Below are positions 3,001-48,346 of a stretch of DNA of 64,000 nucleotides, in pieces (position 1 is the first letter of the stretch; the number at the start of each line of letters is the position of its first letter). The translations under genes and the position numbers were made by a program. Below the pieces are notes generated by a model. The model was not told the DNA's origin. It was given only the letters and a program-made list of their open reading frames with translations, and did not search any database. The stretch spans positions 103,188-167,187 of the forward strand of contig DUVN01000028.1 in the NCBI GenBank assembly GCA_012841015.1, read 5' to 3'. The stretch comes from Clostridiaceae bacterium. GTDB taxonomy: Bacteria; Bacillota; Clostridia; Saccharofermentanales; DTU023.

Positions 3001-6000
3001 CACACCTTTCGACTTTAAGCCATACGCTGGGAAGACTATTCGCGTTGAGATGATGGCTAAGATCAAGGGTAATGCTGACTTAAGCAGCTATCAAGATAGG
3101 AGGATTCCGAACGAAGCGACGTTAAAGTTGAATGAAAATACAGAAGTCTCGTCAAATCAGGTAACACTCCAACCGCCTAAGGGTAGCGTCATCCTGACGA
3201 AGGTCGTCGACGGTGAACCTTTGAGCGGCACACAAACGGCGACATTCAAGCTGTACAAAGTCTTAGGTGTGATTGATGCAACTCCCGGCATTCCTGCAGG
3301 TCAGGATGAGGCGGATGAGTTAATCCAGATCAATGGCCTGAATGAGACGGCCGTAAATGCTGCCAACAACAAGATCACTGTTACAGGACTTGAACCGGGC
3401 GACTACTACTTCGTTGAGACGGCTGCGCCAACAGGCTACACGCTGAACAATTCGCCGATTGCGTTTACGATTACACCTGATCAGTCGGTTGCTGCCGCTT
3501 TGACTTGGAACAACGTCAGTGATCTGACGCCAGTGAAGACGGTCAATCACAACAAGACGATTGAGGTCAAGGACTTCGGTCAGGTATTCACGTATAGGGT
3601 AAGTGTTCCTGTCGGAAGCGTATCCGCGATCAAAGAGTTCGTCATTCGTGACGAGGTGGATCAGCTGCTGGAGATCGTGCCGAACAGCGCGAAAGTCTAT
3701 AAGCAAGATGGAACGGTGTTGGCTGATCATGATTCGGACGAGATCGACGTCGTCAATAGCGTTGTTTCCTTTACGAGGACGTCTGACTTTATTGTGATGA
3801 CGAACAGCCTTGTCACGCTGGAATTTAAGGCGAAACTGAAAACAGACATCACGGCAGGGGATCTGAGTACAGATGTTTTGAATGAAGGCATCCCCAACAA
3901 GGCAACACTCACTGTCAACGATCAACAACCAGTTGATTCCGAAACAGTCTACGTCAAACCCGTGCTAGGTGATGTTACGCTTACCAAGACGGCGGAAGGC
4001 AAACCGCTCGGAGCCGGACAGACGGCGACGTTTGCCCTATATAAAATCTCAGGTGTGATTGATACAACACCCGGTATCCCTGTTGATCAAGATGATACGG
4101 CGGATGTCAAGATCGGCGATGACCGGATGACGGATAGTGGCAAGATCACCGTGACTAACCTTATCTCGGGCACGTACTACTTCGTTGAGACGGTAGCGCC
4201 CGCTGGGTACAAGTTGGATGCGACACCTGTGACATTCACTGTATATGGCGGTGAGAAGGCCGGCAAGAATCCCGTTGCGGTTACGGTTGACAATGAAGCG
4301 GCTGATGTGCCGACACCGGTCAAGACTGTTGACGACGTACAATCGTTGACGCTCGATTCTCTGACGCAGGAGTTCACGTATAAAGTAAGTGTCTCTGTCG
4401 GCGACGTGGACGGGGTAACGAATTTTGTGATCTGTGATGAAGTAGATGCATTCCTTGAAGTTGTTCCAGGAAGCGCGAGTGTCAAGATCAATCAAACCGA
4501 TGTTGGAGGTAGTGTGGAAATCGACGGACCTACCGTGACCTACACGGCTTCCGATGACGACATCGTTGAGATGGCAGGAAAGACAGTTACTCTTCAATTT
4601 GATGCAACGATCAAGCAGGGAACGACGTACGAGGATCTCAGTGATCAATATGCCGATCTTAAGGTCCCCAACACGGCGAAGCTGCAGATTAACAATACTT
4701 GGGTCGATTCAAATACCGTGACAGTGAAACCTGTCTTCGGTAAAGTTTCACTCGTCAAGACATCGGACGAAAGCCCCTTACCTAACGGTTTAAGCGCAAT
4801 TTTCAGTCTTTATCGCGTGACAGGCGGGAACGAAGAACTGATCAGAGACTACCAGACGATTAACGGCAAAATAGAGGTCTCGAACCTCAGTCCCGGGAGC
4901 TACTACTTCGTTGAGAAGTATGCTCCCGCAGGGCATATTCTCGATGAAACGAAGCGAGTGTTCACCATCAAGGACGATGCTGCAACAGAGCCGGTGGCGG
5001 GTGCGAGCGGTGCGAACTTGACTGTCGATAACAAGACACCTAAGGACGGTCCCACAATTGAGAAGTCCGTTGAAGGATCGAACCATTACGTTCTTGCAAC
5101 ACAGGGAGAAGAAGTCACCTATACGATCCGCATGAAGATTCCGGAGCAGGTCGACGGCTATCAGAGCCTCATCCTTGAAGATGAAGTTGACCCATTTTTC
5201 GTGATAGCAAGTGCCGCTGTGGCGGTGGAGAGTGGTTATACTCTTCAGAGTCCCGATGACGGTGTCCTTACCTATGGCGAGCAACCGAATCCAAATCTCG
5301 TCAAGTACACATTTGCAGCCGATTTCGACTATTCGAAGATTGCAGGACAGGACGTTGTCATGACCGTTAAGGTTGCGCTTGCCGACAGTGTCACTGCTGC
5401 CGATGTGGCTGAAACATATCTGGACAACAACATTCCGAATACGGCAAAACAGATCTTTAATGGAACGACTACGAATTCGAACACTGTCACGGTAAAACTT
5501 CTTGGCGACAAACCATCAATTAATAAGAACGTTGAGGGTGCAAACAATCTGAATCTCAGTCATCTCGCGCAGACATTTAAGTACAATATCAACGTTTTGG
5601 TGCCGTCTAACACACAAGGCTATGAGAAACTTGAAGTTGTCGACACGCTTGAGAACGTACTTGAGTACGTATCGGCGGAAGTTCGAGTGGGAGGGACAAA
5701 GAACGAGGCGCTGACTGGGAAAGTGACGGCTGAGCCTGTCACGCTCGGTGGTGTTGAGAGAACGGTCGTTAAGTTATCCTTGGATAACATGTACGACTAC
5801 AATGCTCTGGCAGGCAAACTCGTAACCCTCGTCATCAAGGCGAGAATTAAAGAGGGCGCCGATCTCACGTCGTACATCAATGACGGCGGAATCCCAAACA
5901 GTGCGTCACTTTACTTTAACAGTGACCCCGCCATTGATACGGGTGAGGTTACCGTTACGCCTCCCGGTTCAAGACCTTCGATTGAAAAGGAAGTATCAAA

Positions 6001-9000
6001 AGGCAATATGTCTTCCGGTGGAGCATCGCTCACGCTGGACCGAGATGATCAAGAATTCTACTATCGCCTCATTGTCAAGGTGCCTAGCAATGTTCAAGGG
6101 TACGAGAGCGTTGTGTTGGAAGACGTTCTGGAAGACGTCTTGGTGCCGCCGTCGAAAAGCGACGTGAAACTCTATCTTTATAAGCTGGGTTCAGAAGAAT
6201 ATTCTGACTTGAAGTACTTTCTGACGGACGATGCAATAACGGTTGATGGGCAGCGCGTCCGGATCAGATTCGCGAAAGATTCTTTTAATACTGGTTACAG
6301 CTTCGATAACGCTGCCGGCAGGACGCTGTTGGTGGCGATTAAAACAAGGATCAAAGACGGAGCCGATCTCTCAGGCTATGAGGGGGGCAAGATACCGAAT
6401 AAGGCAACGCTAGCGTTTAACGGCGTTCCTAAGACGTCCAATGAAGTATGGGTTGAGCCTCCCGGTGTGCTGACACTGGACAAAAAGGTGAACGGCACCG
6501 AAGAAGTGAAGCTTAACGACTTAGGCGACATGCTAACCTACACGATGCAAGCTGTGATTCCGGAGGATATCAAGGGCGTCTCGTACATCAAACTTACCGA
6601 CACCTTTGCCGATATCTTAGAGCTTCAGGGTAATGTGAGTGTTGAGGTGAAACGCGGCGGTACGGTTGATGATGATCTTTCCGAGCATGCTACCTCTAGG
6701 CTCACGACCGTCGGACAGACCGTTACACTCAACATCACTGACAGGGCCGATGACTACATCGGTACGATGATCACGGTGACGGTTAAGGCCAAGATCGACC
6801 AGAGTCAAGATTTGGTGAGTCACCTCGTTGACGGAGCGATTCCCAATACGGCGAACCTGCAAATCAACGGCAAAACTTGGGTCGATTCAAATACGGTGAA
6901 AGTCATCCCCATCCTTGGAAAGGTTGTCCTGACAAAAACATCCGGCGAAGAAGAGTTGCCGAAAGACCTGAGTGCCGTCTTCAGTCTTTACAAAGTCAAC
7001 GGCACCGAAGAAGTGTTTATGCGGGAGTACGTGACGGTTGACGGCAAGATTGAAGTCATCAACTTAGGTCCGGGCCAGTACTTTTTCGTGGAGAGACATG
7101 CGCCGAAAGGGCACATCCTTGATCCGACGAAGCACTCTTTTGTGGTTGATACGACAGGTAAGGCCGATCCTGCAAACTTTACGGTTGACAATACGCAGTT
7201 AGAGACGACGTCATTCACCGTGACGCAGGAATGGGTCGGAGGACCGGCGGATAAGCCCACTGTCTTCGTCCAGCTGTATAGGTCATTGGGTGATCATAAG
7301 GAGCCGTACGGTATGCCGGTAATGCTTGAGAACGGCACGAAGACCTATACGTGGAACAACCTTCCCGCAACGACCTTAATAGGAGAAGTGTTCACCTATT
7401 CGGTCGATGAACCGATTGTGCCGGATGGCTACACGAAAGAGATCTCCGAGGATGGCAAGACAATTACGAATACCTACGTCCCGTCACTGATTGACTTAAA
7501 AGTCAGGAAAATCTGGGCGGGAGTCGAACATCCAGAAGATTATAAAGCAACATTCCGCCTCAAGGCGAACGGAGACACGGTTGACGGTCGCGTGATCACC
7601 ATCACGGGCAATGCTATTGGTCGCTTCGAGGATTTACCCGAAACAGATACGAATGGTAACGTGATCAGTTACGATATCGTTGAAGATCCCGTTCAGGGTT
7701 TCTCAAGTAGGAAACTTGGAACTGGAGAGTCTTGTTGTGACTATTTCTTCGTGAATACGAGAGATTCGTCTGTCGGACACTTCACCTTTAAGTGTATCGA
7801 TCACATGACAAAAGAACCGCTAAGAGGTGCGACGTTCGATCTGCGTGAACATAACAGCCCTCACAGACTCGTTGCGACTGCGACATCGGATGCAAAGGGT
7901 GAAGTTCGTTTTAGCAATATCAAGGAAGGTATGTACCAGCTTGTACAGACGGCCTATCCTTCAGGCTACCGTGTTTTCGACGTCATTCGGACGGCCGTCG
8001 TCGATCATAACGGTGACGTGACGATTGGCGGAGAGAATCTCGAAGAAGATTACACTATTTCGAATATCCCCAAACTTACGCCTTTGACGCTGGTCAAGAT
8101 CGACAGCATGACAAGGGCAATCCTGCCTGATGCCGTCTTTGATGTTTATCGCTCAAAGAGTGCTGTCGAGAACCCCACAAGTGCGGCGGCTCACGTTGAC
8201 GACGTCCCTGAACAAGGTAAGTCGCGTGCGGCTACAATTGCCGGCAATCCTGAGATCGAAAGATTGAAGCGCTCGCTTGCCGCGGCGGAAGAGCGTGTTC
8301 GCGAGCTTGAGCAGGCGATTGTAAAGAGTAAGCGAAGTGCCGAGAGGCGGGCGGAACTAGAAAGAGAAAAGGTGGAAGCCGAGGAACACTTGAATACGTT
8401 GAAGAATACGTTGACGGCATCACTAACACAGGCTACTGAAGCGGTGAACGACGCCTACCGTACGTTACAGACGGCGACGAAGTCACTTCAGACGGCAGAG
8501 GCCGAACTTGATGCGTTCCGTCTCGCCAACACGGACGGCAAACTTGATGCTCACATCATAGAACATGAGGAAATGGTCGCACGCCTCTCAGATGAAAAAG
8601 AACAGGCACAGCGACAATACGACGATGCTCTAGCCGAAAAGGAAGCCGTTAAAGAAAAGAATACAGATCTTATGAGAGAAGCAACGGAGGAGCTCGCAGG
8701 CATTGTTGCGCAGATTGAAGCCGCTTCAGTTGACACAGAACAACTCTTAGCTAAAAAGCGCGAGAGCGAGGCGAGAATCGCTGAGTTGAAGTCAATGATC
8801 AATAAGCTAGAAGAGAACGGTCGTACAACGGAAACAGCACCGACTTCAGACGGGAAGTCCGGGACGCGTGCGCCTGCGATGCCTTCAGTTCAATCGGCTG
8901 AACAGAGTTCGATCGGAATGGTCGAAGAATTACCTGGAGACGTCGAGCTTGTCGGCATATTTACAACGGATGAAAACGGAGTTATTGTGCTCCCTGATCT

Positions 9001-9958
9001 CTCCCTCGGAACGTACTATGTCGTCGAAAAGCAGGCTCCGGCAGGCTACCTGAAGTCGACTACTATTTATGAAGTCCGCATCATGAGTGATGCGGACGAA
9101 CAGATCAGGCCTGTTGTTCTCCTTACTGAGAATGATCCGAACCCGGCAATGTTCAGGACACAAGTCACCGTGACAAAATACTGGCTCCATGATGGTCATG
9201 TGAGTGTTCCAGCCGTGACGATGATTCTGAAAGCCAATGGCGTTGAAGTTGACCGTGTGACCTTGGAACCCGGCCAATACCAGCATACGTTCAGGAACTT
9301 GCTCATCTATGACACAAATATGGATGAGATCGACTATACGATCACGGAAGTGGGCGTGCCAGGTTATACGGGCGTTGTTGACAGGATCACTCAGTATGAT
9401 TTTGTCGTGATCAACACGGCATCGACCGTAGTGGAACCAAAAGCTGTGACCGTCTTTACGTTATGGCTCGACGGAGAAGAAAACTCCGCCACTGTCAGAC
9501 TTCTAGCAAACGGCGTTGACACAGGTAAGAAGCTTGTATTGGATACGTTGAACGATTGGTTCGGGACGTTTGAGGGACTACCTGCCGTTGACTCGGAGGG
9601 ACGTGAAATCGTCTATACGATCGCGCAGTTGCCCGTGAAAGGGTACGAGATGCGCATCATCGGTGATGAGAGGATGGGTTTCATCATCGTCAACAAAAAG
9701 GTTGAATCACCGAAACCTGAAGAACCCGTAAAACCTGAAAAACCCGGAAAACCTGAAGGTCAAAAACCACCGGCCTCGTCGTCTAATCGAAAGCCTTCAA
9801 AGCAGAAGTCATCAAAAAAGAGCGGCTCGGTTAACAGAATACCGGTAACGGGTGAGCGCAATGTTGTCATTGTACCCATCGTGCTGTTCGCCTTTGGGGC
9901 TGCTCTCCTCTACGTTGGAGGAAGGCGAAAGAGACGCTCACGCCATCATCAATCATAA
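1..9958 (+). CDS. Giant cell-wall-anchored adhesin, 5' end outside the window. Alternating isopeptide-type stalk modules and SpaA/Cna-B-type Ig-like domains, with a C-terminal IPVTG sortase signal
   Basis: Frame 2 is open from nt 2 (YLEEGKLPNTATITIDGRP... precedes the first listed Met at 101), so the ORF continues upstream. There are 12 copies of a ~150-aa module ending (I/V/L)PN-x-A-x-L...SN-x-VTV-x-P(P)G, the Lys-Asn isopeptide-domain style. There are 8 copies of G-x-Y-(Y/F/K/Q)-(F/L/V)-V-(E/Q)-x-x-x-P-x-G-(Y/H), e.g. GDYYFVETAAPTGY (SpaA/prealbumin-like). Four Cna-B-like modules are present, e.g. TVTQEWVGGPADKPTVFVQLYR. A Pro/Lys-rich wall spacer runs ~9701-9835, followed by the sorting signal. 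Confidence 0.9.
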   Translation, partial: YLEEGKLPNTATITIDGRPAASDNANITPAKGKVSINKTLEGLNPVHDAWPSGEKAIFKLEKKIETVPETWVFVKNVEINSFATVQVDGLLPGMYKLTETSAPSGYMKADSWEFTVTGALGETITHTFNDSKLPSIEKVVDKGFFEATDAERTFTITVPIESVEGLTKLVITDSVDEYLTIVANSVKATLDTVDGTALSVDPAVDGQEITLTLANTYDFSEIEGRSILLTYKVKLKDNFNYKQLPVRYKTYGIPNTAQLVINNNPEVVTDTVNVKVPVAAVTLTKEADGGPLPDGTSATFDLYRGQPDTGTKIGTYSTRKAYSGDIIHVAELVPGDYYFVETMPPYGGYVLNHTPRQFKIVVNNDGYAEPVGIGSFISFRVNNIKSSLPEPVKYVGEKNGQIDQSHLRLDDFNELYSYKVVVDIPQADAIANWTAFTLKDPVDPALAVQNIKVTVGTDVYEIGDPPVAGYPLTFDDVSNTISFAIKNKNNVVSFAGKRIVLTFDANIRSGYSSDDFLEDHPNALITNEAILTVTVEETADPLRSDSNDVTVAPPLPMPKPVKYIHGDDQGNLDEPNESFRLGTLQQHFTYEIRLNVPPNVGNNTRVTLTDWMNELLEPVNTSTDPNTGHYTGDSIKIYISDIYIPRGAEGGSLNDHIFYNASDNTITFGVENIDPSNPAFDFRVLEGKEVRMEIRAKFKDDVTQEQLNNYLVTDSSSPLFGSVVIPNQVGLLLGENVSDWQYSNKVNITPPGDEPTVKKTVENNTGTNNDQKDALLLDQKGDEFTYKVKVDIPANVEGYENITVDDTLENVLQIISTDVLVDSVSDSTLKNKVARAGNNVSLTVTEGFATYAGKSITLEIKAKINDDVTLDQIAHDYGRSAIPNKATLTFNGAAKNSNEVTVTPPGGTPKLVKSVNAQTDIVLGDITDEFVYNISYTIPTNVNGYKSLIMKDVLEKVLTTKLTDIQVYVDEVQNDMLKAFVTTSTANEATTVMLTMGTIDTPFDFKPYAGKTIRVEMMAKIKGNADLSSYQDRRIPNEATLKLNENTEVSSNQVTLQPPKGSVILTKVVDGEPLSGTQTATFKLYKVLGVIDATPGIPAGQDEADELIQINGLNETAVNAANNKITVTGLEPGDYYFVETAAPTGYTLNNSPIAFTITPDQSVAAALTWNNVSDLTPVKTVNHNKTIEVKDFGQVFTYRVSVPVGSVSAIKEFVIRDEVDQLLEIVPNSAKVYKQDGTVLADHDSDEIDVVNSVVSFTRTSDFIVMTNSLVTLEFKAKLKTDITAGDLSTDVLNEGIPNKATLTVNDQQPVDSETVYVKPVLGDVTLTKTAEGKPLGAGQTATFALYKISGVIDTTPGIPVDQDDTADVKIGDDRMTDSGKITVTNLISGTYYFVETVAPAGYKLDATPVTFTVYGGEKAGKNPVAVTVDNEAADVPTPVKTVDDVQSLTLDSLTQEFTYKVSVSVGDVDGVTNFVICDEVDAFLEVVPGSASVKINQTDVGGSVEIDGPTVTYTASDDDIVEMAGKTVTLQFDATIKQGTTYEDLSDQYADLKVPNTAKLQINNTWVDSNTVTVKPVFGKVSLVKTSDESPLPNGLSAIFSLYRVTGGNEELIRDYQTINGKIEVSNLSPGSYYFVEKYAPAGHILDETKRVFTIKDDAATEPVAGASGANLTVDNKTPKDGPTIEKSVEGSNHYVLATQGEEVTYTIRMKIPEQVDGYQSLILEDEVDPFFVIASAAVAVESGYTLQSPDDGVLTYGEQPNPNLVKYTFAADFDYSKIAGQDVVMTVKVALADSVTAADVAETYLDNNIPNTAKQIFNGTTTNSNTVTVKLLGDKPSINKNVEGANNLNLSHLAQTFKYNINVLVPSNTQGYEKLEVVDTLENVLEYVSAEVRVGGTKNEALTGKVTAEPVTLGGVERTVVKLSLDNMYDYNALAGKLVTLVIKARIKEGADLTSYINDGGIPNSASLYFNSDPAIDTGEVTVTPPGSRPSIEKEVSKGNMSSGGASLTLDRDDQEFYYRLIVKVPSNVQGYESVVLEDVLEDVLVPPSKSDVKLYLYKLGSEEYSDLKYFLTDDAITVDGQRVRIRFAKDSFNTGYSFDNAAGRTLLVAIKTRIKDGADLSGYEGGKIPNKATLAFNGVPKTSNEVWVEPPGVLTLDKKVNGTEEVKLNDLGDMLTYTMQAVIPEDIKGVSYIKLTDTFADILELQGNVSVEVKRGGTVDDDLSEHATSRLTTVGQTVTLNITDRADDYIGTMITVTVKAKIDQSQDLVSHLVDGAIPNTANLQINGKTWVDSNTVKVIPILGKVVLTKTSGEEELPKDLSAVFSLYKVNGTEEVFMREYVTVDGKIEVINLGPGQYFFVERHAPKGHILDPTKHSFVVDTTGKADPANFTVDNTQLETTSFTVTQEWVGGPADKPTVFVQLYRSLGDHKEPYGMPVMLENGTKTYTWNNLPATTLIGEVFTYSVDEPIVPDGYTKEISEDGKTITNTYVPSLIDLKVRKIWAGVEHPEDYKATFRLKANGDTVDGRVITITGNAIGRFEDLPETDTNGNVISYDIVEDPVQGFSSRKLGTGESCCDYFFVNTRDSSVGHFTFKCIDHMTKEPLRGATFDLREHNSPHRLVATATSDAKGEVRFSNIKEGMYQLVQTAYPSGYRVFDVIRTAVVDHNGDVTIGGENLEEDYTISNIPKLTPLTLVKIDSMTRAILPDAVFDVYRSKSAVENPTSAAAHVDDVPEQGKSRAATIAGNPEIERLKRSLAAAEERVRELEQAIVKSKRSAERRAELEREKVEAEEHLNTLKNTLTASLTQATEAVNDAYRTLQTATKSLQTAEAELDAFRLANTDGKLDAHIIEHEEMVARLSDEKEQAQRQYDDALAEKEAVKEKNTDLMREATEELAGIVAQIEAASVDTEQLLAKKRESEARIAELKSMINKLEENGRTTETAPTSDGKSGTRAPAMPSVQSAEQSSIGMVEELPGDVELVGIFTTDENGVIVLPDLSLGTYYVVEKQAPAGYLKSTTIYEVRIMSDADEQIRPVVLLTENDPNPAMFRTQVTVTKYWLHDGHVSVPAVTMILKANGVEVDRVTLEPGQYQHTFRNLLIYDTNMDEIDYTITEVGVPGYTGVVDRITQYDFVVINTASTVVEPKAVTVFTLWLDGEENSATVRLLANGVDTGKKLVLDTLNDWFGTFEGLPAVDSEGREIVYTIAQLPVKGYEMRIIGDERMGFIIVNKKVESPKPEEPVKPEKPGKPEGQKPPASSSNRKPSKQKSSKKSGSVNRIPVTGERNVVIVPIVLFAFGAALLYVGGRRKRRSRHHQS
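8165..8935 (+). other. ~250-aa coiled-coil insertion inside one SpaA-like domain of the adhesin
   Basis: Two long Pro/Gly-poor, heptad-like helical stretches: IERLKRSLAAAEERVRELEQAIVKSKR... and ...AQIEAASVDTEQLLAKKRESEARIAELKSMINKLEENG. A central break (RLANTDGKLDAH) lies at nt ~8527-8560. The flanks are the two halves of a single domain: LTLVKIDSMTRAILPDAVFDVYRSKS and VELVGIFTTDENGVIVLPDLSLGTYYVVEKQAPAGY. Confidence 0.65.
9839..9955 (+). other. Sortase sorting signal (IPVTG, hydrophobic helix, basic tail)
   Basis: IPVTG is at 9839-9853. It is followed by ERNVVIVPIVLFAFGAALLYVGG and RRKRRSRHHQS-stop, the classical tripartite LPXTG-type architecture with Ile at position 1. Confidence 0.8.
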
Positions 9959-24037: not shown

Positions 24038-24406
24038 AACATGATCAATAATTCCTATCAGATCTCACCTCTTTTCCTTGCGCTAGATTTTCCCATCCTA
24101 ACTCTTCCTGTCGAAGTGGTGATGGCACGTACAATCTTGACTCATGTCAATTTTTGTCGACCAACTACGACTAAAGCGACACATATCCATGATGATTGCT
24201 GGCCATCATTTAATCGTTATAATGGTAACGATTACAGTGATTGCACATCCTATTGGTATTCATACTTATCTTGTCGATATAGCCTCTAGTGCCACAATAC
24301 CGTAGTGGAACAGTATCAATTTATCAGCAGAACACTTGTCGGTATGTCCGGATTACTTACAGAATCGGCGTTTACTCGTCGAAATGACATAGATAGCCTG
24401 CTAAGT

Positions 24407-24875
24407 TGGTCAAAAAAGACACTTTGGGCACGCAACCGCTGCTCAAGGTGGAAAAATTGACCACATTCGACTGAGAAGCGCTCGAAAATGGTCAAAAATG
24501 ACGTTTTAGGTAAGAACCCCGTGCTCAAAGCGTAAATTTTGTCCATTAGCCACCTGCAATTGAGCGAATCTGGTCAAAAATGACGTTTTGGGCAAGGACC
24601 CGTTACTCAAGGTGTAAATTTTGTCCACAAACCGCTTGTAATCGCCCGCATCTGGCCAAAAATGACGCTTTTGGCAAGGGCCCGTTACCCAACGTGTAAA
24701 TTTTGTCCACCATCGACTGAGAATCCCCCGAATGTGGTCAAAAAAGACGTTTTGGGTAGGAACCTGCTGCTCAAAGTGTAAATTTTGACCACAACCGACC
24801 TGAAATTGCCCGCATCTGGTCAATAATCACGCTTTAGGCAAGGGCGCGCTACCCAAGGTGTAAATTTTGACCACA
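24407..24875 (+). repeat. Tandem array 1 of an 82-bp unit (59-bp dyad-symmetric core plus 23-bp linker): 6 cores, 5 linkers
   Basis: Cores begin at 24407, 24489, 24571, 24653, 24735 and 24817, exactly 82 bp apart. The core is approximately TGGTCAAAAATGACGTTTTGGGCAAGGACCCGTTACTCAAGGTGTAAATTTTGACCACA. Pairwise core identity is ~75-85%. Confidence 0.95.
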
Positions 24876-25017
24876 ATACCACTCGTAAAGGGAGAAGGAA
24901 AGGAACGCTGACAAGCTATATTCCCGTGTTTCCTGCCGGCCAAGTTGCTTTGTTATGAAGCCTAACAGCGAAAAAAGCGCGTATCGTGCCCGAATGTCCA
25001 CGCAGGTGTCAAACTTC

Positions 25018-25026
25018 TGATATAAT
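25018..25026 (+). promoter_or_regulatory. Candidate extended -10 promoter for glgP
   Basis: TGaTATAAT lies 47 nt upstream of ATG 25073. No convincing -35 is present. Confidence 0.35.
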
Positions 25027-25072
25027 TACTTTCGGTTTTTGCCGATTGGCACTTACTCTAGTGAGGTATCTA

Positions 25073-27460
25073 ATGAATAAAGAAGTTTTGAAGAAAAGAA
25101 TTGAGTCTTATCTATACGCTGAATTTGGCAAGAGTGTAGCTCATGCCAGCGAACACGAGTACTGGACAGCAATCTCACGTGCCGTTATGGAGACGATCGG
25201 TCCCGATTGGGAGGCGACTCGCGAGCAGTACCAGAAAGGACGAACGGTCCACTATTTTTCCGCTGAGTTTCTCGTTGGACGAAGCTTGCTCAATAATCTG
25301 ATGAACAGGGAGTTGCTTGACACCATAAAAGAACTCGTCGAGGAGGCAGGGTTTGACTTCGACTCAGTTTTGAACGAAGAGACAGATCCAGCACTCGGTA
25401 ACGGCGGTCTCGGGCGTCTTGCTGCGTGTTTTCTCGACTCGTCGGCGACGATGGAACTCCCTGTGATCGGTCACGGAATCTTGTACCGCTACGGATTGTT
25501 CCGACAAGAAATTGAACATGGCCACCAGAAGGAGTACCCCGATGCATGGATGGAGCTTCCTTATCCATTTCTGGCAACACGGCGTGAAGACAAAGTTCTC
25601 GTTCACTACCGTGATATGGATGTTTATGCTGTTCCATGGGACCTTCCCATAACTGGCTGGGGTACGCCCAATGTCAACACCATCCGTCTTTGGAAAGTAG
25701 AACCTGCTGAAGAGTTTGACTTTAATCTCTTCAATTCGCAGCGATTTGACGATGCAGTCATCATGCGCAATCGGGTACAGGATATCTGCCGTGTCCTTTA
25801 TCCAAACGATACGAGTTACGATGGGAAAGTATTGCGTGTGCGCCAACAGTATTTCTTCGTATCGGCATCACTGCAGACGATCGTCCGTCAGTACCGTGAA
25901 CAACACGGCTATGATTTCTCTCAGTTTGCAGACAAAAACATTATCCAGCTGAACGATACGCACCCTGTTCTTGCAATTCCCGAACTTATGCGACTTCTGA
26001 TTGACGAGAACCAGCAGAGCTGGAGCGAGGCGTGGGAAATCGTAACAAAGGTTTTCGCCTTTACGAATCATACGATCATGCAGGAAGCACTCGAAAAATG
26101 GGACATTGAAATATTCCGTTTCCTGTTTCCGCGTGTTCTCGAGATTATCGAGAAGATCGATAAACAGTTCAGAGAAGTGGCCTTCGAAAAGGGCCATCAC
26201 GAACAGGAGATCGATGCTCTCGCCCCCATTCATGACAATCAGATTCACATGGCACTTCTCGCCGCCTATGCTTGCAACTCCATCAATGGTGTCGCAATGA
26301 TCCATAGCGAAATACTGAAACAAGAAGTGTTCAATCCTTTCTATCGATGGTGGCCTGATAAATTCAGAAACAAAACGAATGGTGTTACGCCGCGCCGCTG
26401 GCTGAATTTATGTAATCCCGATCTTTCGGCGATGTTAACGCGACTTAGCGGTTCTGATGCCTGGTTGACTGACATGGACAGACTTTTAGAGCTAAAAGAA
26501 GTTGCCGAAGACACGAATGAGATGCGCAATCTCCTCGAAGTCAAGGCTAGAAATAAAGAGCGTCTTGCCCGTTTGATCAAAGATCGGGAGGGGATTGAGA
26601 TTGATTCGTCCTTTATTTTCGATGTGCAGATCAAGCGACTCCACGAGTATAAACGCCAATTGATGAACGCGCTTGAAATCCTTGATCGCTACTACAAGTT
26701 GAAGGAGAATCCGCTCCTCAATATGCCGCCCGTCGCTTACATCTTCGGGGCTAAAGCTGCACCCGGCTACTTCTTGGCGAAAGCGACGATCAAGTTTATC
26801 AATGAGATCGCTCGCATTGTCAATGACGACCTCGACGTAAGCCAGAAGATGCGCGTTATTTTCATGCATAATTACAACGTCTCGCTCGCTGAAAAGATTT
26901 TCCCCGCCGCTGATATCTCAGAACAGATTTCAACCGTCGGCATGGAAGCTTCCGGAACGGGCAACATGAAGTTTATGATGAATGGTGCTCTGACCGTTGG
27001 TACATACGACGGCGCCAACATTGAGATCCTACAGCAAGTCGGAGAGGAGAATGCCTTCATGTTTGGTCCTCGCTTGAAAGACTTTCCTGCGACGAAGAAG
27101 TTCTATACATCGCACTGGCAATATGAAAATATAGAAGGTCTCAAGCGCGTTGTCGATACATTGGTCAGTGGCGCCATTTCGGATGGCAACACAGGGATGT
27201 TTCGCGCTCTTTACAATCGACTTCTTCAGGGATCAAGTTACGAGAAAGCCGATCCTTATTATGTTTTAGGTGATTTTGCAGCTTATCGCGAGACGAGAAG
27301 TAAAGCCTATGCCGCTTATCGCAACCAGATCAATTGGGCAAAAATGTGTTGGAACAACATCTGTGCGAGTGGACACTTCAGCTCTGATCGTACCATTCGC
27401 GATTACGCTGAAGACATCTGGAAGGTTGAGCCGAAAAACATACATGGAACCTTAGGATAA
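25073..27460 (+). CDS. glgP: Glycogen/maltodextrin phosphorylase
   Basis: GNGGLGRLAACFLDS, NDTHP, NKTNGVTPRRWL and EASGTGNMKFMMNGALTVGTYDGANIEI (PLP-Lys motif). ATG 25073 follows RBS GTGAGG; the 29 codons upstream in the track ORF look non-coding. Confidence 0.93.
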   Translation: MNKEVLKKRIESYLYAEFGKSVAHASEHEYWTAISRAVMETIGPDWEATREQYQKGRTVHYFSAEFLVGRSLLNNLMNRELLDTIKELVEEAGFDFDSVLNEETDPALGNGGLGRLAACFLDSSATMELPVIGHGILYRYGLFRQEIEHGHQKEYPDAWMELPYPFLATRREDKVLVHYRDMDVYAVPWDLPITGWGTPNVNTIRLWKVEPAEEFDFNLFNSQRFDDAVIMRNRVQDICRVLYPNDTSYDGKVLRVRQQYFFVSASLQTIVRQYREQHGYDFSQFADKNIIQLNDTHPVLAIPELMRLLIDENQQSWSEAWEIVTKVFAFTNHTIMQEALEKWDIEIFRFLFPRVLEIIEKIDKQFREVAFEKGHHEQEIDALAPIHDNQIHMALLAAYACNSINGVAMIHSEILKQEVFNPFYRWWPDKFRNKTNGVTPRRWLNLCNPDLSAMLTRLSGSDAWLTDMDRLLELKEVAEDTNEMRNLLEVKARNKERLARLIKDREGIEIDSSFIFDVQIKRLHEYKRQLMNALEILDRYYKLKENPLLNMPPVAYIFGAKAAPGYFLAKATIKFINEIARIVNDDLDVSQKMRVIFMHNYNVSLAEKIFPAADISEQISTVGMEASGTGNMKFMMNGALTVGTYDGANIEILQQVGEENAFMFGPRLKDFPATKKFYTSHWQYENIEGLKRVVDTLVSGAISDGNTGMFRALYNRLLQGSSYEKADPYYVLGDFAAYRETRSKAYAAYRNQINWAKMCWNNICASGHFSSDRTIRDYAEDIWKVEPKNIHGTLG

Positions 27461-32977: not shown

Positions 32978-33355
32978 AGATGAATTTCACAGCATAATTG
33001 CTTTCTTCAGTCTGAAGTCCTGTTATGCGTCTTACCTTCCAGTAAAAAAATGCATCTTAGTGATCTCAAGCATGGTGGTCTATTGTTTTCCGTGCATTGA
33101 TCGCATGTGAATGGACTCTTCCCAAAACAAGACGTTATCTTCTTTGTTTTCATTCCTTATGTAATTAAAATAAAAAAGAAACAATATTGTAAATACAGTC
33201 AAATAATGTATGATGAACATAGGTCAAGAGGAGTACTTTACTGAGTAATTATTTGATCAAGAGTGTACGTCTCTCGGCGAAGTAACTGCCCAAATCCGCA
33301 AAAATGCGGCAAAGGCGCGATCGCGCAGTCTAAACAGAAAGGTGGTGCAGCCCCT

Positions 33356-34339
33356 ATGAAACGGACGGAAAAGATGCTGAAAAGCTTGTTGTTCAGTATC
33401 CTATGCTTATCCATTGTGATAGGTCTGTGGATCACAGGATCGAGAGATGTACATGCGGACTTAGTCCGCTCCAAGATCACTGTCAAAACAGACCGCGAGC
33501 TGTATCAAGGAGCAGATATCGCGGCTTTTCTCAAGGGAATTAGGCTTACCGCTCCGCTTGCGGGCGCTATTAAAGATTACTACTTTACTCTCCTCTATGA
33601 AGATGAAGGTGGAGTTCCGACTGAGGTGAGTTCGGGAAAAGCTAAGGTGGGGAACTATATTCTTGCGTATAGGATTGAGCTGACAAGCGGCAATGTTTTC
33701 GACGAACCGGAGAATATTGAGGTCAAATTGAATGGTAGGAATGGCGTAGCTGAAGAACCATTCGAAGGTTCACACATATCTACCGGATACTGGTACATCG
33801 AGTCCGTCCGTCTGTACAAAGTTGTTTTTAACGCGAGAGGTGGTACACCTGTCCCCAAAACACAATGGGTCAAGGAAGGCTCCACCATCAAAAAACCGCA
33901 GGATCCGACGAAAGAAGGATATAAATTCAAATATTGGGGCATGGAGATTGCTGACTACTTTGAGCCTTGGGATTTTTCTGATCTTTTGGGGAAAGGATAC
34001 GACCCACAGATCCTCAACGCAGTCTGGGAAGCGTTGCCGCCACCCCCGACCACCACAACGACTATTACCACCACAACAACAGAAGAGCCGACAACACCTG
34101 AAATAACTGAAACGAATGAGGTGACGATACCCACCGAGACATCAACACCTGACGATCTGACAGACGCGGCGTTGGTCGCTAGCGAGGAAACGACACCTTC
34201 CGACGATAGTCAAGAGGGTGGAACGAAATTCCCACTCCTGATCATCATAGTCGGTACTCTGCTTCTTACATGGACAGTTGCTTTAATTGTATTTAGCGTT
34301 CTCAAAAGCCGGCAGAAGAAAGAAACGAGACCGAACTGA
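33356..34339 (+). CDS. Surface protein paralogue 1: signal peptide, unknown ~150-aa domain, Listeria-Bacteroides (Flg_new) repeat, Thr-rich stalk, C-terminal TM anchor
   Basis: MKRTEKMLKSLLFSILCLSIVIGLWITGSRDVHA (signal). YKVVFNARGGTPVPKTQWVKEGSTIKKPQDPTKEGYKFKYWG...AVWE (Flg_new-type repeat). PPPPTTTTTITTTTTEEPTTPEITE. FPLLIIIVGTLLLTWTVALIVFSVL plus KSRQKKE. ATG 33356 follows a conserved leader with GAAAGGTGG. Confidence 0.8.
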   Translation: MKRTEKMLKSLLFSILCLSIVIGLWITGSRDVHADLVRSKITVKTDRELYQGADIAAFLKGIRLTAPLAGAIKDYYFTLLYEDEGGVPTEVSSGKAKVGNYILAYRIELTSGNVFDEPENIEVKLNGRNGVAEEPFEGSHISTGYWYIESVRLYKVVFNARGGTPVPKTQWVKEGSTIKKPQDPTKEGYKFKYWGMEIADYFEPWDFSDLLGKGYDPQILNAVWEALPPPPTTTTTITTTTTEEPTTPEITETNEVTIPTETSTPDDLTDAALVASEETTPSDDSQEGGTKFPLLIIIVGTLLLTWTVALIVFSVLKSRQKKETRPN

Positions 34340-34411
34340 TTCAGTAGCCATGTGCAAAATGTGGCAAAAGGGCGATATAGCAGACAAATAATGAAAGGTG
34401 ATCGTGCCACT

Positions 34412-35452
34412 ATGAAACGGACGGAAAGAATACTAAAGGGCGTGTTGCTCTGTATCTTATGCCTATCGATCATGATGGGTCCGTGGATTGCGAGGTCGAG
34501 AGATGTGCATGCGGTCATTGATACCTGCTACTCCAGAATCGAAGTCAAAACAGATGGGTTATTCAGGGGAACAGACATCAAAGCTTTTCTAAAGGGTTTG
34601 AAGCTCATCTATCCTCCCGTAGAAAATGTTACTTACAAGTTCACCCTTTACGTTCTAGATGAAAATGGTGTGCGGACCAAGGTGAGTTCCGGGCAAGCTC
34701 GAGCTGCGGCATATGATCTTGAATATAAAATAGTCATTAAGAAAGAAGTTCCTGATACTGTATTTGATAAAGCAGAAAATATAGTGGCTATGCTGAATGG
34801 TCTAGAAGCTATCGTTGATTATCATGATGACTATTATAAAGGTTCTGGCCTTTCAACTCTATCTACCGGTTATTGGGAAATCGATTCAGGTGACAGGAAC
34901 AAAGTTACCTTCGACGCACAAGGTGGAAAACCTGTCCCTAAGACACAATGGCTTGACGGTGGATACGAAAAAGTCAAAAAACCGACGAATCCGTCTAAAG
35001 AGGGCTTTAAATTCAAAGGTTGGTACTTTAAGGATGTCGGTAAAAATAAGTTATGGGATTTTTCCAAGCCTTTGGGGGAGATATACGACCTCAATCTCTT
35101 TGCCGTGTGGGAAAAGTTGCCGCCTTCCACGACCACAACTACAACCACGACAACGACTACAACCACGACGACAGAAGAGCCGACAACCATCGCAATGACG
35201 ACGGAGCGGCCGACAACACCTGAAATAACTGAAACGGATGAGGCGACGACACCCGCCGAGCCGACAACGTCTGACGACCTGACAGTCCCGGCCCTAGTCG
35301 CTAGCGAGGAAACGACACCTTCCGATGATAATAAAGAGGGTGGAAAGAAATTCCCGCTCCTGCTTATCATCGTCGGTGGTCTGCTCCTCGCATGGACAGT
35401 CGCTTTGTTTGTATTGACTGTTCTCCAAAGGCGGAAGAAGGAAGAACATTGA
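34412..35452 (+). CDS. Surface protein paralogue 2 (same architecture)
   Basis: MKRTERILKGVLLCILCLSIMMGPWIARSRDVHA, NKVTFDAQGGKPVPKTQWLDGGYEKVKKPTNPSKEGFKFKGWYF...AVWE, a Thr run and a C-terminal TM. ATG 34412 lies after the conserved leader. Confidence 0.8.
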   Translation: MKRTERILKGVLLCILCLSIMMGPWIARSRDVHAVIDTCYSRIEVKTDGLFRGTDIKAFLKGLKLIYPPVENVTYKFTLYVLDENGVRTKVSSGQARAAAYDLEYKIVIKKEVPDTVFDKAENIVAMLNGLEAIVDYHDDYYKGSGLSTLSTGYWEIDSGDRNKVTFDAQGGKPVPKTQWLDGGYEKVKKPTNPSKEGFKFKGWYFKDVGKNKLWDFSKPLGEIYDLNLFAVWEKLPPSTTTTTTTTTTTTTTTEEPTTIAMTTERPTTPEITETDEATTPAEPTTSDDLTVPALVASEETTPSDDNKEGGKKFPLLLIIVGGLLLAWTVALFVLTVLQRRKKEEH

Positions 35453-35464
35453 CCGAAAAGTGCC

Positions 35465-35625
35465 GCGATGAGCTTTCTGACTTTAATAATCGTTACAGGG
35501 TGATACCTGCTACGACGTATTTAGGAATTGGTTGGGCGTTGCTTTTCGGTTTTCACGATCCGGCGATTATTGTCGATGCGAAAGGTCATCCGGTCGGGAG
35601 TCTTTGCAGCCTCTCGGTAAAGTAG
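35465..35625 (+). pseudogene. Orphan fragment homologous to the insertion segment of dut
   Basis: It translates as DELSDFNNRYRVIPATTYLGIGWALLFGFHDPAIIVDAKGHPVGSL. The dut segment 32700-32842 reads EELSDFNKRYRAIPAATFFKNQTGRTLPFGFHDPTIFVDENGHPLGSL. The flanking dUTPase catalytic motifs are absent and there is no independent start or RBS. Confidence 0.8.
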
Positions 35626-35695
35626 CTTTCTAGGGCTCGCAAAAAGTGGCAAAGCGCGACAGCGCAGACAAATAACGAAAGGTGGTGGTGCCACT

Positions 35696-36715
35696 ATGAA
35701 ATGGACGAAAAAAATACTGAAGGGCTTGTTGCTCTGCGTCTTATCCTTATCGATCATGACAGGTTTGTGGATTACGGAACCGAAAGATGTACATGCCTAT
35801 ATGGTCTACTCTGAGGTTCACGTCGTCGATACATATCAGTTTTACAGGGGGGGAAGTGTCGCAGCTTTTCTAAAGGGTTTAAAGATCACCTATCCTCCAG
35901 CGAGCGCTATCAAGAGGTGCAAGTTTGGCCTTTCCTACTTAAATAATAAAGGGGTACGGATCAAGGTGAGTTCCGGGGAAATTAAGTATTTGCCCTATGA
36001 TATTGAGTATGAAATTGAGCTGTATTCTGACTGTATTTTTGACTACGAGAATCTAGAGGTTTTGCTGAATGGATTACGTGCCCGCATCGATGAAGGCCCG
36101 GATAATCATTATGTTTCTGGCTACTGGCAACTAGATCCATACGAAAGGAACAAAATTACCTTCGACGCGCGAGGTGGAAAACCGGTTCCAAAAGTACAAT
36201 GGATTGAATATGCATCCGAAAAGATAAAAAAACCGAAAAATCCGGTCAAAGAGGGCTACAAATTTTTAGGTTGGTTCTTTAAGGACGCCGGTAAATATAA
36301 ATTATGGAATTTCTCCAAGCCTTTGGGGCGTAATGACGACCTAACTCTGTATGCTTTATGGGACCAGTTGCCTTCCCCCACAACTACTACAACGACAACG
36401 ACCCCGCCAACCACGACAATAACCACAACCACACCAACCACGACAACGACTACCACAACGCCATCTACAACTACAGCGGAGAAGCTGACAACGCTTGAAA
36501 TAACTGAAACAGAGGAAATATCGACGTCTGAGACAATTGCATCTGACGACTTGACGAGCACAGCACCTGTTATCGGTGAGGAGACGACTGCACCTGATGA
36601 TAAAAAAGAAGGTGGAAAGAACTTCCCGCTCCTGCTTATCATTATCGGTGCTCTGCTTCTCACATGGACAGTCGCTTTAATTGTCTTTACCGTTATGCGA
36701 AGGCGTAAAAAGTAA
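35696..36715 (+). CDS. Surface protein paralogue 3 (same architecture; contains a G7 tract at 35847-35853)
   Basis: MKWTKKILKGLLLCVLSLSIMTGLWITEPKDVHA, NKITFDARGGKPVPKVQWIEYASEKIKKPKNPVKEGYKFLGWFF...ALWD, a Thr-rich stalk and a C-terminal TM plus RRRKK. Confidence 0.8.
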   Translation: MKWTKKILKGLLLCVLSLSIMTGLWITEPKDVHAYMVYSEVHVVDTYQFYRGGSVAAFLKGLKITYPPASAIKRCKFGLSYLNNKGVRIKVSSGEIKYLPYDIEYEIELYSDCIFDYENLEVLLNGLRARIDEGPDNHYVSGYWQLDPYERNKITFDARGGKPVPKVQWIEYASEKIKKPKNPVKEGYKFLGWFFKDAGKYKLWNFSKPLGRNDDLTLYALWDQLPSPTTTTTTTTPPTTTITTTTPTTTTTTTTPSTTTAEKLTTLEITETEEISTSETIASDDLTSTAPVIGEETTAPDDKKEGGKNFPLLLIIIGALLLTWTVALIVFTVMRRRKK

Positions 36716-43806: not shown

Positions 43807-44898
43807 TTGAATCAAATGAAAGATAATAATAAAAATCTCATATTAGGGATCGAGACATCGTGCGATGAAACGGCTGCAGCCGTCGTCGCAAACGGTATGA
43901 TGATTCTGTCAAATGTGATCGCATCTCAGATCAACTTGCATGCGGAATATGGCGGTGTTGTTCCCGAGATCGCGTCGCGCGAGCACGTCAAGTCGATCCT
44001 GCCTGTCATTGATCGCGCTTTGAGTGATGCTGATATTTCACTTGATGATTTGACCGCCATCGCTGTAACATACGGGCCGGGGCTTGTAGGGGCTTTGCTC
44101 GTCGGCGTCTCTGCTGCGAAGGGTTTGGCCGCTGCGACCGGACTGCCTCTGATTCCTGTGAACCATCTGGAAGGTCATATCGCGTCATCTTACTTGGCCG
44201 ATCCGTCGCTTGAGCCTCCGTTCCTTTGTCTCATCGTTTCGGGCGGTCATTCATCACTCGTCGAAGTCTTAGATTACACGTGTTATCGGACGCTCGCACG
44301 GACGAGAGACGATGCGCCAGGAGAGGCATTCGACAAGATTGCACGGAGTATTGGTCTAGGCTATCCCGGCGGGCCGCTTATCGAGCGCGCTTCAGAAGGT
44401 GGAAATTCAGACGCTTTTTACCTTCCCGTAACGCATTTCTCCGACTCCTACGATTTTTCTTTCAGCGGTGTCAAGACGGCAGCCATCAACGCCTATAGGA
44501 AAATTGAACGTGAAGCTGCTCAAGAGGGGAGAGACTGGCCTCTATCGTGCTCACAGGCCGATTTTGCGGCTACGTTTCAGGCGTCGATCGTCGAAGCGCT
44601 CGTCAAGCACACGGAGGCGGCCCTCATCGATACGGGATACAAAACGCTCGTGCTCGGAGGAGGCGTATCAGCGAACAAGAAACTTCGAGAGGTGATGCGA
44701 GAGATGACAGACTCGATCGGTGTTAGGCTTATCGTTCCGCTTCCTGTGTACTGCACAGATAATGCTGCGATGATCGCCTCTGCCGGTTATTTTGCTTGGA
44801 AAGATGGTAGACGTGCAGCGCTCGATCTCAATGCTGTCCCCATGGCAGAACTCGAAGAGATTATCGGTCAGTCAACAAGGGAAGGAGAGACACGCTGA
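43807..44898 (+). CDS. tsaD: tRNA N6-adenosine threonylcarbamoyltransferase
   Basis: ILGIETSCDETAAAVV, GVVPEIASREH, GPGLVGALLVG, NHLEGH and GGVSANKKLR. The start is TTG 43807 or ATG 43816. Confidence 0.93.
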   Translation: MNQMKDNNKNLILGIETSCDETAAAVVANGMMILSNVIASQINLHAEYGGVVPEIASREHVKSILPVIDRALSDADISLDDLTAIAVTYGPGLVGALLVGVSAAKGLAAATGLPLIPVNHLEGHIASSYLADPSLEPPFLCLIVSGGHSSLVEVLDYTCYRTLARTRDDAPGEAFDKIARSIGLGYPGGPLIERASEGGNSDAFYLPVTHFSDSYDFSFSGVKTAAINAYRKIEREAAQEGRDWPLSCSQADFAATFQASIVEALVKHTEAALIDTGYKTLVLGGGVSANKKLREVMREMTDSIGVRLIVPLPVYCTDNAAMIASAGYFAWKDGRRAALDLNAVPMAELEEIIGQSTREGETR

Positions 44899-45368
44899 TG
44901 AGTAAAGATGCAAAAAAGACGAAGCTTATCACGGAAAACAGGCGTGCACGCTTTGAGTACCATATCCTCCGTCGCCTTGAGACGGGGATTGTCTTGACGG
45001 GTACTGAAGTAAAGTCGATTCGGCAAGGTCACCTTAGTCTCGGGGAAGCTTACGTAACTGTCCGTGATGGAGAACTCTTCTTGATCGGTGCTCACATTCG
45101 ACCGTATGAACAAGGCAACCGATTCAACCCTGATCCGACGCGCGACCGAAAGTTGCTCGCTCATAAACACGAGATTCGTCAACTCGACGTTGCCACGCAG
45201 CAGCGCGGCATGACGCTCATTCCTCTTAGAGCGTATTTTGTTGACGGTCGCGTCAAAATCGAAATCGGTGTCGCGCGAGGGAAGAAGCTTTACGACAAGC
45301 GCGAAGCGATTAAAGAGCGCTCGCAGGAGCGCGATATTCGCAAACGTATGAAAGAGATGAGCCGATAA
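44898..45368 (+). CDS. smpB: SsrA-binding protein
   Basis: ITENRRARFEYHILRRLETGIVLTGTEVKSIRQG...KLLAHKHEI...KKLYDKREAIKER. The start overlaps the tsaD stop (TGATG). Confidence 0.95.
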   Translation: MSKDAKKTKLITENRRARFEYHILRRLETGIVLTGTEVKSIRQGHLSLGEAYVTVRDGELFLIGAHIRPYEQGNRFNPDPTRDRKLLAHKHEIRQLDVATQQRGMTLIPLRAYFVDGRVKIEIGVARGKKLYDKREAIKERSQERDIRKRMKEMSR

Positions 45369-45497
45369 GAAGGCAATGAAGCGGTTATACTTGGCGTTAC
45401 AAAACAATTAAGTTACACGTGACAAAACAATGTCTAGAACAGTTTAACTAGATTCCGACATAATGAAATGGTAAAGAGAAAGTGAGATGATAAAACA

Positions 45498-46061
45498 ATG
45501 ACATTATCGTATCGATTGAATAAAGACGACACGCTCCTCCTTGTCATTGACCTCCAAGAGCGCTTGGTTCCCGCCATGTATGATAAAGATTCTTTGTTAA
45601 CGCAGGTGGAAGTGCTGCTCAATGTCGCCAAAGTATTTGACTTGCCCGTCATCGTGACGGAACAATATCCAAAAGGGCTTGGACCTACAGTTGCATCTCT
45701 TGTATCGTTTATTCAGTCAGAGAAACTTAACGCCGATGTGTTCGATAAGATCCATTTTACGGCCATGACAACCGAGGTAAAAGAACGCCTGATACAGTAT
45801 GATCGCAAACAAGTAATTGTCATCGGGGCAGAGACACACGTCTGTATCTTTCAGACGGTGCGCGATTTACTCTCGGAAGGGTACGAAGTCTTTGTCCCGC
45901 ACGATGCCGTCGACTCACGGTCGATAGAAAACAAAAAGGTCGCACTCGCTTTGTTCAGAGAGATGGGTGCCGTTGTTACAAGCACGGAGACGATACTTTT
46001 CGACTTGTTGCAAGTCGCAGGCACACCAGAGTTCAAAAAGCTTTCAGCGTTGATCAAGTGA
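45498..46061 (+). CDS. Isochorismatase-family cysteine hydrolase
   Basis: LLLVIDLQERL, VIVTEQYPKGLGPT and VIVIGAETHVCIFQTVRDLL (catalytic Cys context). Confidence 0.8.
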   Translation: MTLSYRLNKDDTLLLVIDLQERLVPAMYDKDSLLTQVEVLLNVAKVFDLPVIVTEQYPKGLGPTVASLVSFIQSEKLNADVFDKIHFTAMTTEVKERLIQYDRKQVIVIGAETHVCIFQTVRDLLSEGYEVFVPHDAVDSRSIENKKVALALFREMGAVVTSTETILFDLLQVAGTPEFKKLSALIK

Positions 46062-46120
46062 TTGATGTTACCGTTCGTGTAAAGAACGTCAATTCATGTT
46101 AAGATAATGGTGCCTTTTAT

Positions 46121-48153: not shown

Positions 48154-48346
48154 ACGCCCTGACAGAAACATGCCTTGAGCGCACGAAGGCGCATAACTTA
48201 ATTCTTCTTCTCTCAGTCGGTATTCTCAAGTTCAACCTGCCCAAAGTGAAAGTGCAGGAGGATGGGGAGGTGTGTCATACTCACTTGGGAAATAACTTTG
48301 GCGACTAAGACTATCTTGTCAGTATAAATCTATCTCTCGACTGTGT

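Follow-up and report, generated by a model that had tools for sequence, protein, structure and literature searches.

An array of palindromic modules upstream of glgP

In the 64,000-nucleotide stretch of DNA analysed here (the window), glgP (25073-27460; PF00343; product HHW94063.1) is preceded by an intergenic gap of 1035 bp (24038-25072), which is bordered at its other end by a minus-strand ORF of 179 amino acids. This gap holds a tandem array, array A (24407-24875, plus strand), that is composed of six 59-bp cores and five 23-bp linkers. TRF reports a period of 82 bp with 5.8 copies and 73% matches for positions 24407-24882, and ungapped cutting every 82 bp extracts cores of 59 bp that start at 24407, 24489, 24571, 24653, 24735 and 24817 and are each followed by a linker of 23 nt. 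In an identity matrix, the cores are 69-88% identical to each other and the linkers 43-87%; the linkers fall into two types, X (A1, A4 and, from a second array in the window, B2) and Y (A2, A3 and A5, as well as B1 and B3).

Each core is an imperfect dyad, with 16-20 Watson-Crick pairs and one to four G·T pairs over 27 symmetric positions. Standard pairs occupy 86.5% of the cells, and sliding the partner column by 1-3 positions reduces this to 32-47%. The window has 10-14 occurrences of the arm motifs, where chance would give about 0.08, and these are confined to the two arrays. TRF, the ungapped register, the linker types, the dyad pairing and the motif counts thus bear out how the array had been described in the initial annotation, namely as six 59-bp cores exactly 82 bp apart, with linkers that are themselves a degenerate family, cores that are imperfect dyads and an intergenic location upstream of glgP. 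The exception is the number of G:T positions, which had been given as three to four per core and actually ranges from one to four over the ten units of the window.

Array A is preceded by a head (24389-24406, plus strand; ATAGATAGCCTGCTAAGT), a degenerate CTTAGC-GT-GCTAAG-T palindrome that abuts the first unit and whose first base, 24389, is also the first base absent from sister species. On the other side follows a tail of about 90 bp (24876-24965, plus strand), which is likewise missing from sister species and opens with a degenerate last linker. It is uncertain whether this tail belongs to the element, as the rest of it is not conserved among arrays.

The glgP locus in related species

The glgP-bearing relatives at 92% (L202-L205), 86% (L206-L208) and 80% (L209) amino acid identity are all devoid of the array, and nhmmer finds no units in these three related species, even at E<=10. 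The order Der, YceG, Rce1-like protease and small ORF upstream of glgP is kept in the 92% and 86% species, with an intergenic gap of about 200-380 bp compared with 1035 bp here, and the downstream order glgP-PC4-sortase is kept in all three. Aligned with L202, the window matches up to ...CGTCGAAATGAC (24388) and again from AGCGAAAAAAGCG at about 24966, so that about 577 bp are extra here (24389-24965), made up of the 18-nt head, the six units and the tail of about 90 nt. By this alignment, array A is an insertion relative to the sister species, and it is the only array with an empty site; for array B, no close orthologue of the PEBP gene is found in the sister species (best 59%). Neither a target-site duplication nor terminal inverted repeats are visible at the junctions of array A, which is the one place where junctions can be defined. 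In the sister species, the sequence of the empty site is CCGTCAAAATGACGCG, to be compared with TGGTCAAAAATGACGC at the start of a unit.

The extended -10 element of the glgP promoter (25018-25026, plus strand; TGATATAAT) is a landmark outside the element and is conserved in the three related species: CTGATATAAT (25017-25026) is at equal distance to the glgP start codon in L202 and L206, L209 has CTGTTATAAT, and the position relative to the glgP start is also shared by L203. As this conserved promoter sits about 50 bp downstream of the insert, the array lies outside the glgP leader.

In the nearest GTDB genomes (Saccharofermentans, Mageeibacillus and Fastidiosipila-type MAGs), the glgP products are 52-63% identical, 78% at best, and no arrays are present. 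One of the sister-species contigs stems from an anaerobic-digester metagenome and the host, an uncultured Saccharofermentanales bacterium, most likely comes from such a digester. A tandem array of another kind is found in Eubacterium xylanophilum ATCC 35991 just 3' of glgP (L147:8843-9083; 83 bp x 2.9); it has a hairpin of its own and its sequence is unlike that of the family described here.

Five arrays of one family

The second array of the window, array B (59891-60195, minus strand; TRF: period 82, 3.7 copies, 59892-60196), is inverted relative to array A and has four units, with cores that run downwards from 60195, 60113, 60031 and 59949. Its head (60196-60217) is AAAAAAA-CCTAGCGTGCTAAGC on the minus strand, and the plus strand has in its place a small hairpin, GCTTAGCACGCTAGG (60196-60210), with T7 behind it (60211-60217). 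The hairpin has a predicted stability of -4.8 kcal/mol and fails a terminator scan that needs at least three G-C pairs. The two inverted arrays were considered as the ends of a 35-kb mobile island, and this was rejected because the order glgP-PC4-sortase-SH3-KsgA is the same in array-free species.

The strand opposite to the units is unusually poor in stop codons and gene callers place ORFs there; for this reason, the 105-amino acid read-through of array A was chosen as a protein query. It identified P0255, and P0255 in turn identified P0256 and P0257 by HMMER; all three are ORF calls across further arrays in metagenome 3300002898, whose contig draft_10000046, reversed, corresponds to the window. 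Array C has six units and lies between a VWA gene and PEPCK, array D has two units and is on contig draft_10000089 (L223), and array E has four units and lies between gcvPB and a CBS-domain gene. The five arrays A, B, C, D and E (6, 4, 6, 2 and 4 units) are on three contigs of this metagenome, and arrays D and E are seen again in a second one, 3300060680. The protein databases searched (5.8 billion and 1.84 billion sequences) hold only three matching ORFs, all spurious and all on arrays of this organism: the arrays yield false gene calls, and the three database 'proteins' are array read-throughs. The arrays also break short-read assemblies, as same-species contigs from other sequencing runs (Logan) stop within arrays A and B. 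That such contigs reach into A and B at all indicates that the arrays are real and present in several samples.

The copies are at unrelated intergenic sites: the neighbouring genes of the five arrays are unrelated, and divergent, tandem and convergent gene orientations are all represented. A palindromic head, CTTAGC-GT-GCTAAG, opens four of the five arrays; directly before the first unit, the sequence is ATAGCCTGCTAAGT in A, CTAGCGTGCTAAGC in B, TTAGCGTGCTAAAA in C and TTAGTGCGCTAAGT in E, and in B, C and E the head has an A-run ahead of it. Within the window, TAGCNNGCTAA occurs at the two arrays only, and among 226 loci the degenerate head pattern YTAGYSYGCTAAR is found next to arrays only. 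At the other end, there is no conserved module past the degenerate last linker, as the tails of A-E do not align further. A shared 3' tail had been considered, with AGCCTWAC 83-97 nt past the last core in A and B; it was rejected, since a global alignment of the tails is about 2 sd over shuffles and fails in C-E. In all 22 units, the outer arms are the most invariant columns.

Other short modules, some of them linker-like, are interleaved around array D, so that the region has the character of a mosaic. A 27-31-nt motif, GCYGGTCTCTAYGACCAWGRGTATYAC, occurs five times at a spacing of exactly 61 bp in a series that abuts array D (L223:4743-5017); the repeats are 65-84% identical and the spacers of about 30 nt are unrelated. 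This series could be a decayed CRISPR-like array or another mosaic module. At L223:5285-5517, reverse-complement linker-like modules (CCTATTCTCGCAYGCTTTCGGGTYGAT) are placed at 61, 66 and 122 bp with the 59-bp core absent, indicating that modules of the family can combine otherwise. A solitary 16-nt sequence, TGTGGACAAAATTTAC, which matches one of the arms of the 82-bp unit letter for letter, is located about 3 kb past the right end of the window (L214:15785-15800).

Gain, loss and exchange of modules

Whole modules are gained and lost, and modules are swapped among arrays. In metagenome 3300060680, array E is one unit shorter than in 3300002898 (three units and four units, respectively), and the exact 82-bp difference corresponds to a fusion of E1 and E2. 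Units C3-C5 are mutually 90-96% identical, which points to recent local amplification. In other samples, array A has a different core type before A5, with A5, A6 and the flank identical but for two substitutions in the flank. Because unit number differs among samples, the arrays are possible strain markers. The whole-unit differences suggest that array length would change by unequal homologous recombination or by replication slippage between adjacent modules.

When A3-A6 are compared with B1-B4 in register, the units are 77, 80, 80 and 72% identical and have the linker order Y-X-Y-end in common; these identities equal or beat those within the arrays. The in-register match with the same linker order suggests that multi-unit blocks were copied between sites, and dispersal of the element would then proceed by the movement of such blocks.

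The ten units of the window have accumulated at least 68 substitutions with zero net change in length, which could reflect some length constraint. Elsewhere in the family, E3 is only 71 bp long and C6 is short by one base, so that the 82-bp phase is usual rather than fixed. The initial annotation had stated that the register never slips and had taken this as a sign of constrained spacing: the first holds within the window and breaks down in the other arrays, where one unit measures 71 bp and one core lacks a nucleotide, and of the second only a weak form survives, with the length-stable window units in its favour and the indels of the other arrays against it. A strict length constraint is rejected by these same two indels.

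Structured RNA or palindromic DNA

On the basis of the G:T positions in the hairpins, an RNA-level structure had been proposed for the plus strand. Such a structured RNA, whether formed by each unit or by the whole array, could for instance be a tandem array of small RNAs or a cis-regulatory leader of glgP, and we regard it as extremely improbable. In its favour, single cores fold far below shuffled controls, and array A is co-oriented with glgP. The plus strand of single cores folds better by 3.7 kcal/mol on average (Wilcoxon p=0.016, for units that are not independent), and a weak strand effect in the family is conceivable. Folded as a whole, however, array A is about equally stable on both strands, with -162.7 kcal/mol (z -4.4) for the plus strand and -173.2 kcal/mol (z -4.7) for the minus strand.

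The initial annotation had also described a strand asymmetry for cores 3 and 5, with G:T at stem positions that would be A/C mismatches on the complement. This does not hold across the window: at the symmetric positions of its ten units, there are 182 Watson-Crick pairs, and G·T (24) is about as frequent as A·C (21), with 43 positions taken by other combinations. In the 22 units of all five arrays, G·T outnumbers A·C by 55 to 26, a count to which array C contributes near-duplicate units, and the ratio differs from array to array (A 16:7, B 8:9, C 21:1, D 5:3, E 5:6); the excess in A and C agrees with a plus-strand RNA and its absence from B and E does not. An RNA made from one strand should show a consistent bias, and the variation among arrays speaks against the RNA reading. 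Arrays A and B are oppositely oriented on one replichore, as judged from the monotonic cumulative GC skew, and a strand-specific mutation bias fits their difference in G·T no less well than selection acting on a single transcript would.

Covariation among the units, which the initial annotation had named as a check, is never seen over column shuffles: the observed values are reached by 281-462 of 500 shuffles for the ten window units and by 390-489 of 500 for the 22 units. The proposed RNA-level structure is thus contradicted twice, by equal stability of the two strands and by the lack of compensatory changes. Rfam offers no match to the array either: at the gathering threshold, the tmRNA is the sole match in the window, and a permissive scan of positions 24200-25100 returned one chance match (E=4.2).

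In the NsiR1-like type of tandem small-RNA gene array, every unit has its own promoter and terminator. Here, no promoter- or terminator-like sites recur per unit and their counts are within those of shuffles; an NsiR1-like array was rejected on these grounds. A leader function is contradicted by the position of the conserved glgP promoter 3' of the array and by the sister species that keep glgP without the array. A further point against the RNA reading is array B, which runs antisense to the genes on either side. We infer that the hairpin potential is a property of the palindromic DNA consensus and not of an evolved RNA fold. Nothing points to the array as a structured RNA or as a regulator of glgP, and it is taken off the list of candidates for both.

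Possible functions of the arrays on the opposite strand and as DNA

On the strand opposite to the units, the modules could be part of the 3' UTR of the upstream gene and block 3' exonucleases, with the head serving as terminator, as has been proposed for REP/BIME of E. coli. Arrays B, C, D and E are downstream of a co-oriented gene on that strand, the heads of B, E and C there appear as a hairpin with a T-run behind it (T7, T5 and T4, respectively), and the stretch from the zinc-ribbon gene to array B has no predicted terminator. Still, this function is unlikely: the head hairpins are weak (-4.8 kcal/mol in B; at most two to three G-C pairs) and none passes the terminator scan, array A has neither a co-oriented upstream gene on that strand nor a T-run, and array C is separated from its upstream gene by another terminator-like hairpin. 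Four out of five orientations are also not significant, the family-wide G·T excess translates to A·C mismatches on this strand, and the 22 units show no covariation.

Alternatively, the array could act as DNA. Half-sites TGGTCAA / TTGNCCA stand 50 bp apart and recur every 82 bp, with A-tracts about every 41 bp; these invariant half-sites and A-tracts would recruit a dimeric DNA-binding or nucleoid-associated protein, by which the array would be coated or bent. Such a role agrees with the outer arms being the most invariant of all columns in the 22 units, with a conservation that is symmetric and independent of the strand, and with most units keeping their length well. It is nevertheless very unlikely, given that a candidate binding protein is linked to none of the five loci, that sister species dispense with the arrays, that copy number varies among samples and that the 71-bp unit breaks the phase in array E. 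We know of no regulator motif that matches the half-sites.

A probable lineage-specific dispersed repeat

The array is probably one copy of a non-coding mosaic repeat, dispersed and lineage-specific, of one uncultured Saccharofermentanales species. The element has at its front a palindromic head, (A-run)-CTTAGC-GT-GCTAAG-T, of about 16-20 bp, behind which n modules of 82 bp are lined up in tandem, with each module consisting of a 59-bp imperfect palindrome and a 23-bp linker. At glgP, the element would be selfish or neutral, being placed upstream of and outside the conserved glgP promoter. Protein coding was rejected in view of the 82-bp period, of ORFs that change from array to array and of the short ORFs of array B, with only 30-44 amino acids.

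A strict two-arm pattern, which is matched exactly by several units in every array of at least four units, has no match in 185,579 species-representative genomes; a looser pattern has at least 120 single chance matches in metagenome contigs, none of which belongs to the family by nhmmer, and five matches in viral contigs, all by chance. Plasmids and phages have no blastn match to the family, and a full-text literature search with the unit sequence returned one irrelevant primer. The array had not been recognised as a named repeat family in the initial annotation, and this agrees with the outcome of Rfam, of the BLAST searches of plasmids and phages and of the literature search. The family appears to be previously undescribed and, as far as visible, restricted to one uncultured species; with it, a repeat family is on record for an order of uncultured, little-studied Clostridia from anaerobic digesters. 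In metagenome Ga0208946 (L007, L009, L014, L016 and about 30 further loci), dozens of contigs match TGGTCAAAAA-N30-40-AATTTTGNCCA once each; these are not members of the family by nhmmer and may carry another dispersed repeat.

Comparison with known repeats

By analogy, the best-supported placement of the 82-bp family would be alongside pneumococcal BOX and the REP clusters, BIMEs and REPINs of Proteobacteria, as an element of a like general kind that is a member of neither family. Like BOX, the family is an intergenic, non-coding composite repeat of a Firmicute, with a terminal module and a variable number of tandem internal modules. Further likenesses are the predicted stem-loops and a length that is variable between strains, with larger variation in longer arrays; here, the arrays have two to six units, and A and E differ between samples. 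Large BOX elements also create spurious ORFs, and it was such ORFs that led to arrays C-E. The boxA and boxC ends of BOX (Streptococcus pneumoniae, S. suis) act as terminal inverted repeats and there are target-site duplications; boxB has 45 bp and is itself no long palindrome (Croucher et al. 2011, PMC3049150). The 82-bp family differs from this in that it has just one conserved end, the head, with tails that cannot be aligned, and no duplication at the junctions of array A; there is also no sequence similarity.

REPs are 20-40 bp long with a G+C-rich stem and an unpaired GTAG or CGTC tag, dRS3 being CGTC-1 (PMC3733652); each REP is palindromic and GTAG REPs travel with a RAYT transposase gene (PMC2817692, PMC3116915, PMC3733652). 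With REP clusters and BIMEs, the 82-bp family shares regularly spaced palindromic units in tandem at intergenic sites and alternating linker types: the period is 82 bp, and the X and Y linkers alternate in part. The head-to-head REP pair of a REPIN forms a long imperfect hairpin, like the 59-bp core, and lineage restriction and variable number are further common traits. The arms of the 82-bp family are different from REPs, as they are A/T-rich, untagged and singly not palindromic; instead of a tagged stem-loop, each unit has a palindrome of 59 bp whose outer arms, TGGTCAAAAA...TTTTGACCA, are rich in A/T and whose ends bear no tag. The REP surveys consulted report none for Firmicutes, and there is no RAYT-type transposase in the scanned ORFs of the window or in the gene tables of C-E, which together cover about 110 kb of the genome.

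More generally, the scanned window ORFs and about 50 kb around the other loci contain no transposase or recombinase. We think it rather unlikely that head and palindromic modules are the substrate of a single-strand DNA transposase or site-specific recombinase, in a Firmicute counterpart of REPIN/RAYT that would relocate multi-unit arrays in one piece, possibly to arm-like sites (CCGTCAAAATGACGCG compared with TGGTCAAAAATGACGC), and involve neither terminal inverted repeats nor target duplications. If true, such a dedicated mobilising enzyme would extend the REPIN/RAYT-type relationship to Firmicutes.

The NIMEs of Neisseria consist of dRS3 and RS modules, short inverted-repeat motifs and longer modules that are strung together in intergenic regions, and dRS3 is a known target of phage integration. 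Their mosaic make-up is similar to what is seen near array D, where other modules, including linker-like ones, are interleaved, but the motifs are unrelated and no link to phage integration was seen for the 82-bp family. MIRU-type minisatellites of mycobacteria are tandem intergenic units of 40-100 bp whose number differs by whole units. The exact 82-bp change at array E between 3300002898 and 3300060680 is of this minisatellite or VNTR type; in contrast to the 82-bp units, MIRUs are not palindromic and are oriented with operons.

Three further types of element were considered and rejected. With CRISPR, the array has a partly palindromic repeat and a regular spacing in common, but its 23-nt intervals are a conserved family of two types (up to 87% identical), its repeats are 69-88% identical and there are no Cas domains in the scanned ORFs. 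For a MITE, both terminal inverted repeats and a target-site duplication are missing. The end motifs that are expected of an integron attC or a dif site are absent on reading the sequence.

Other features of the window and its vicinity

An unrelated tandem array (73 bp x 2.7; L214:15278-15473) follows a gene for a Cna_B surface protein of 1395 amino acids about 3 kb past the right end of the window. Just upstream of the zinc-ribbon ORF and array B, an ECF-type sigma factor is encoded in two overlapping ORFs (58379-59114), 58379-58672 with a Sigma70_r2 domain and 58587-59114 without a domain; this split may be a frameshift or a pseudogene. The tmRNA gene (46121-46495; 154.9 bits) forms a group with smpB (44898-45368) and an isochorismatase-family gene (45498-46061) at 44898-46495. 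Past the tmRNA, the region of 47-60 kb has a lower G+C content (0.39-0.48) and mostly ORFs with no Pfam match. A 300-bp direct repeat of 87% identity is also located downstream of the tmRNA, with copies at 48314-48613 and 49989-50288 that are 1675 bp apart.

Three tandem paralogues with Thr/Pro-rich coding microsatellites (ACAACG-type repeats) are found at 33263-36715; the long direct repeats between them are 63-82% identical, and the first paralogue, the one that was scanned, has a Listeria-Bacteroides repeat domain. A giant ORF (1-9958; more than 3285 amino acids) apparently runs past the left end of the window; it has repeated segments around a YYFVET..AP.GY-type motif and probably encodes a surface adhesin.
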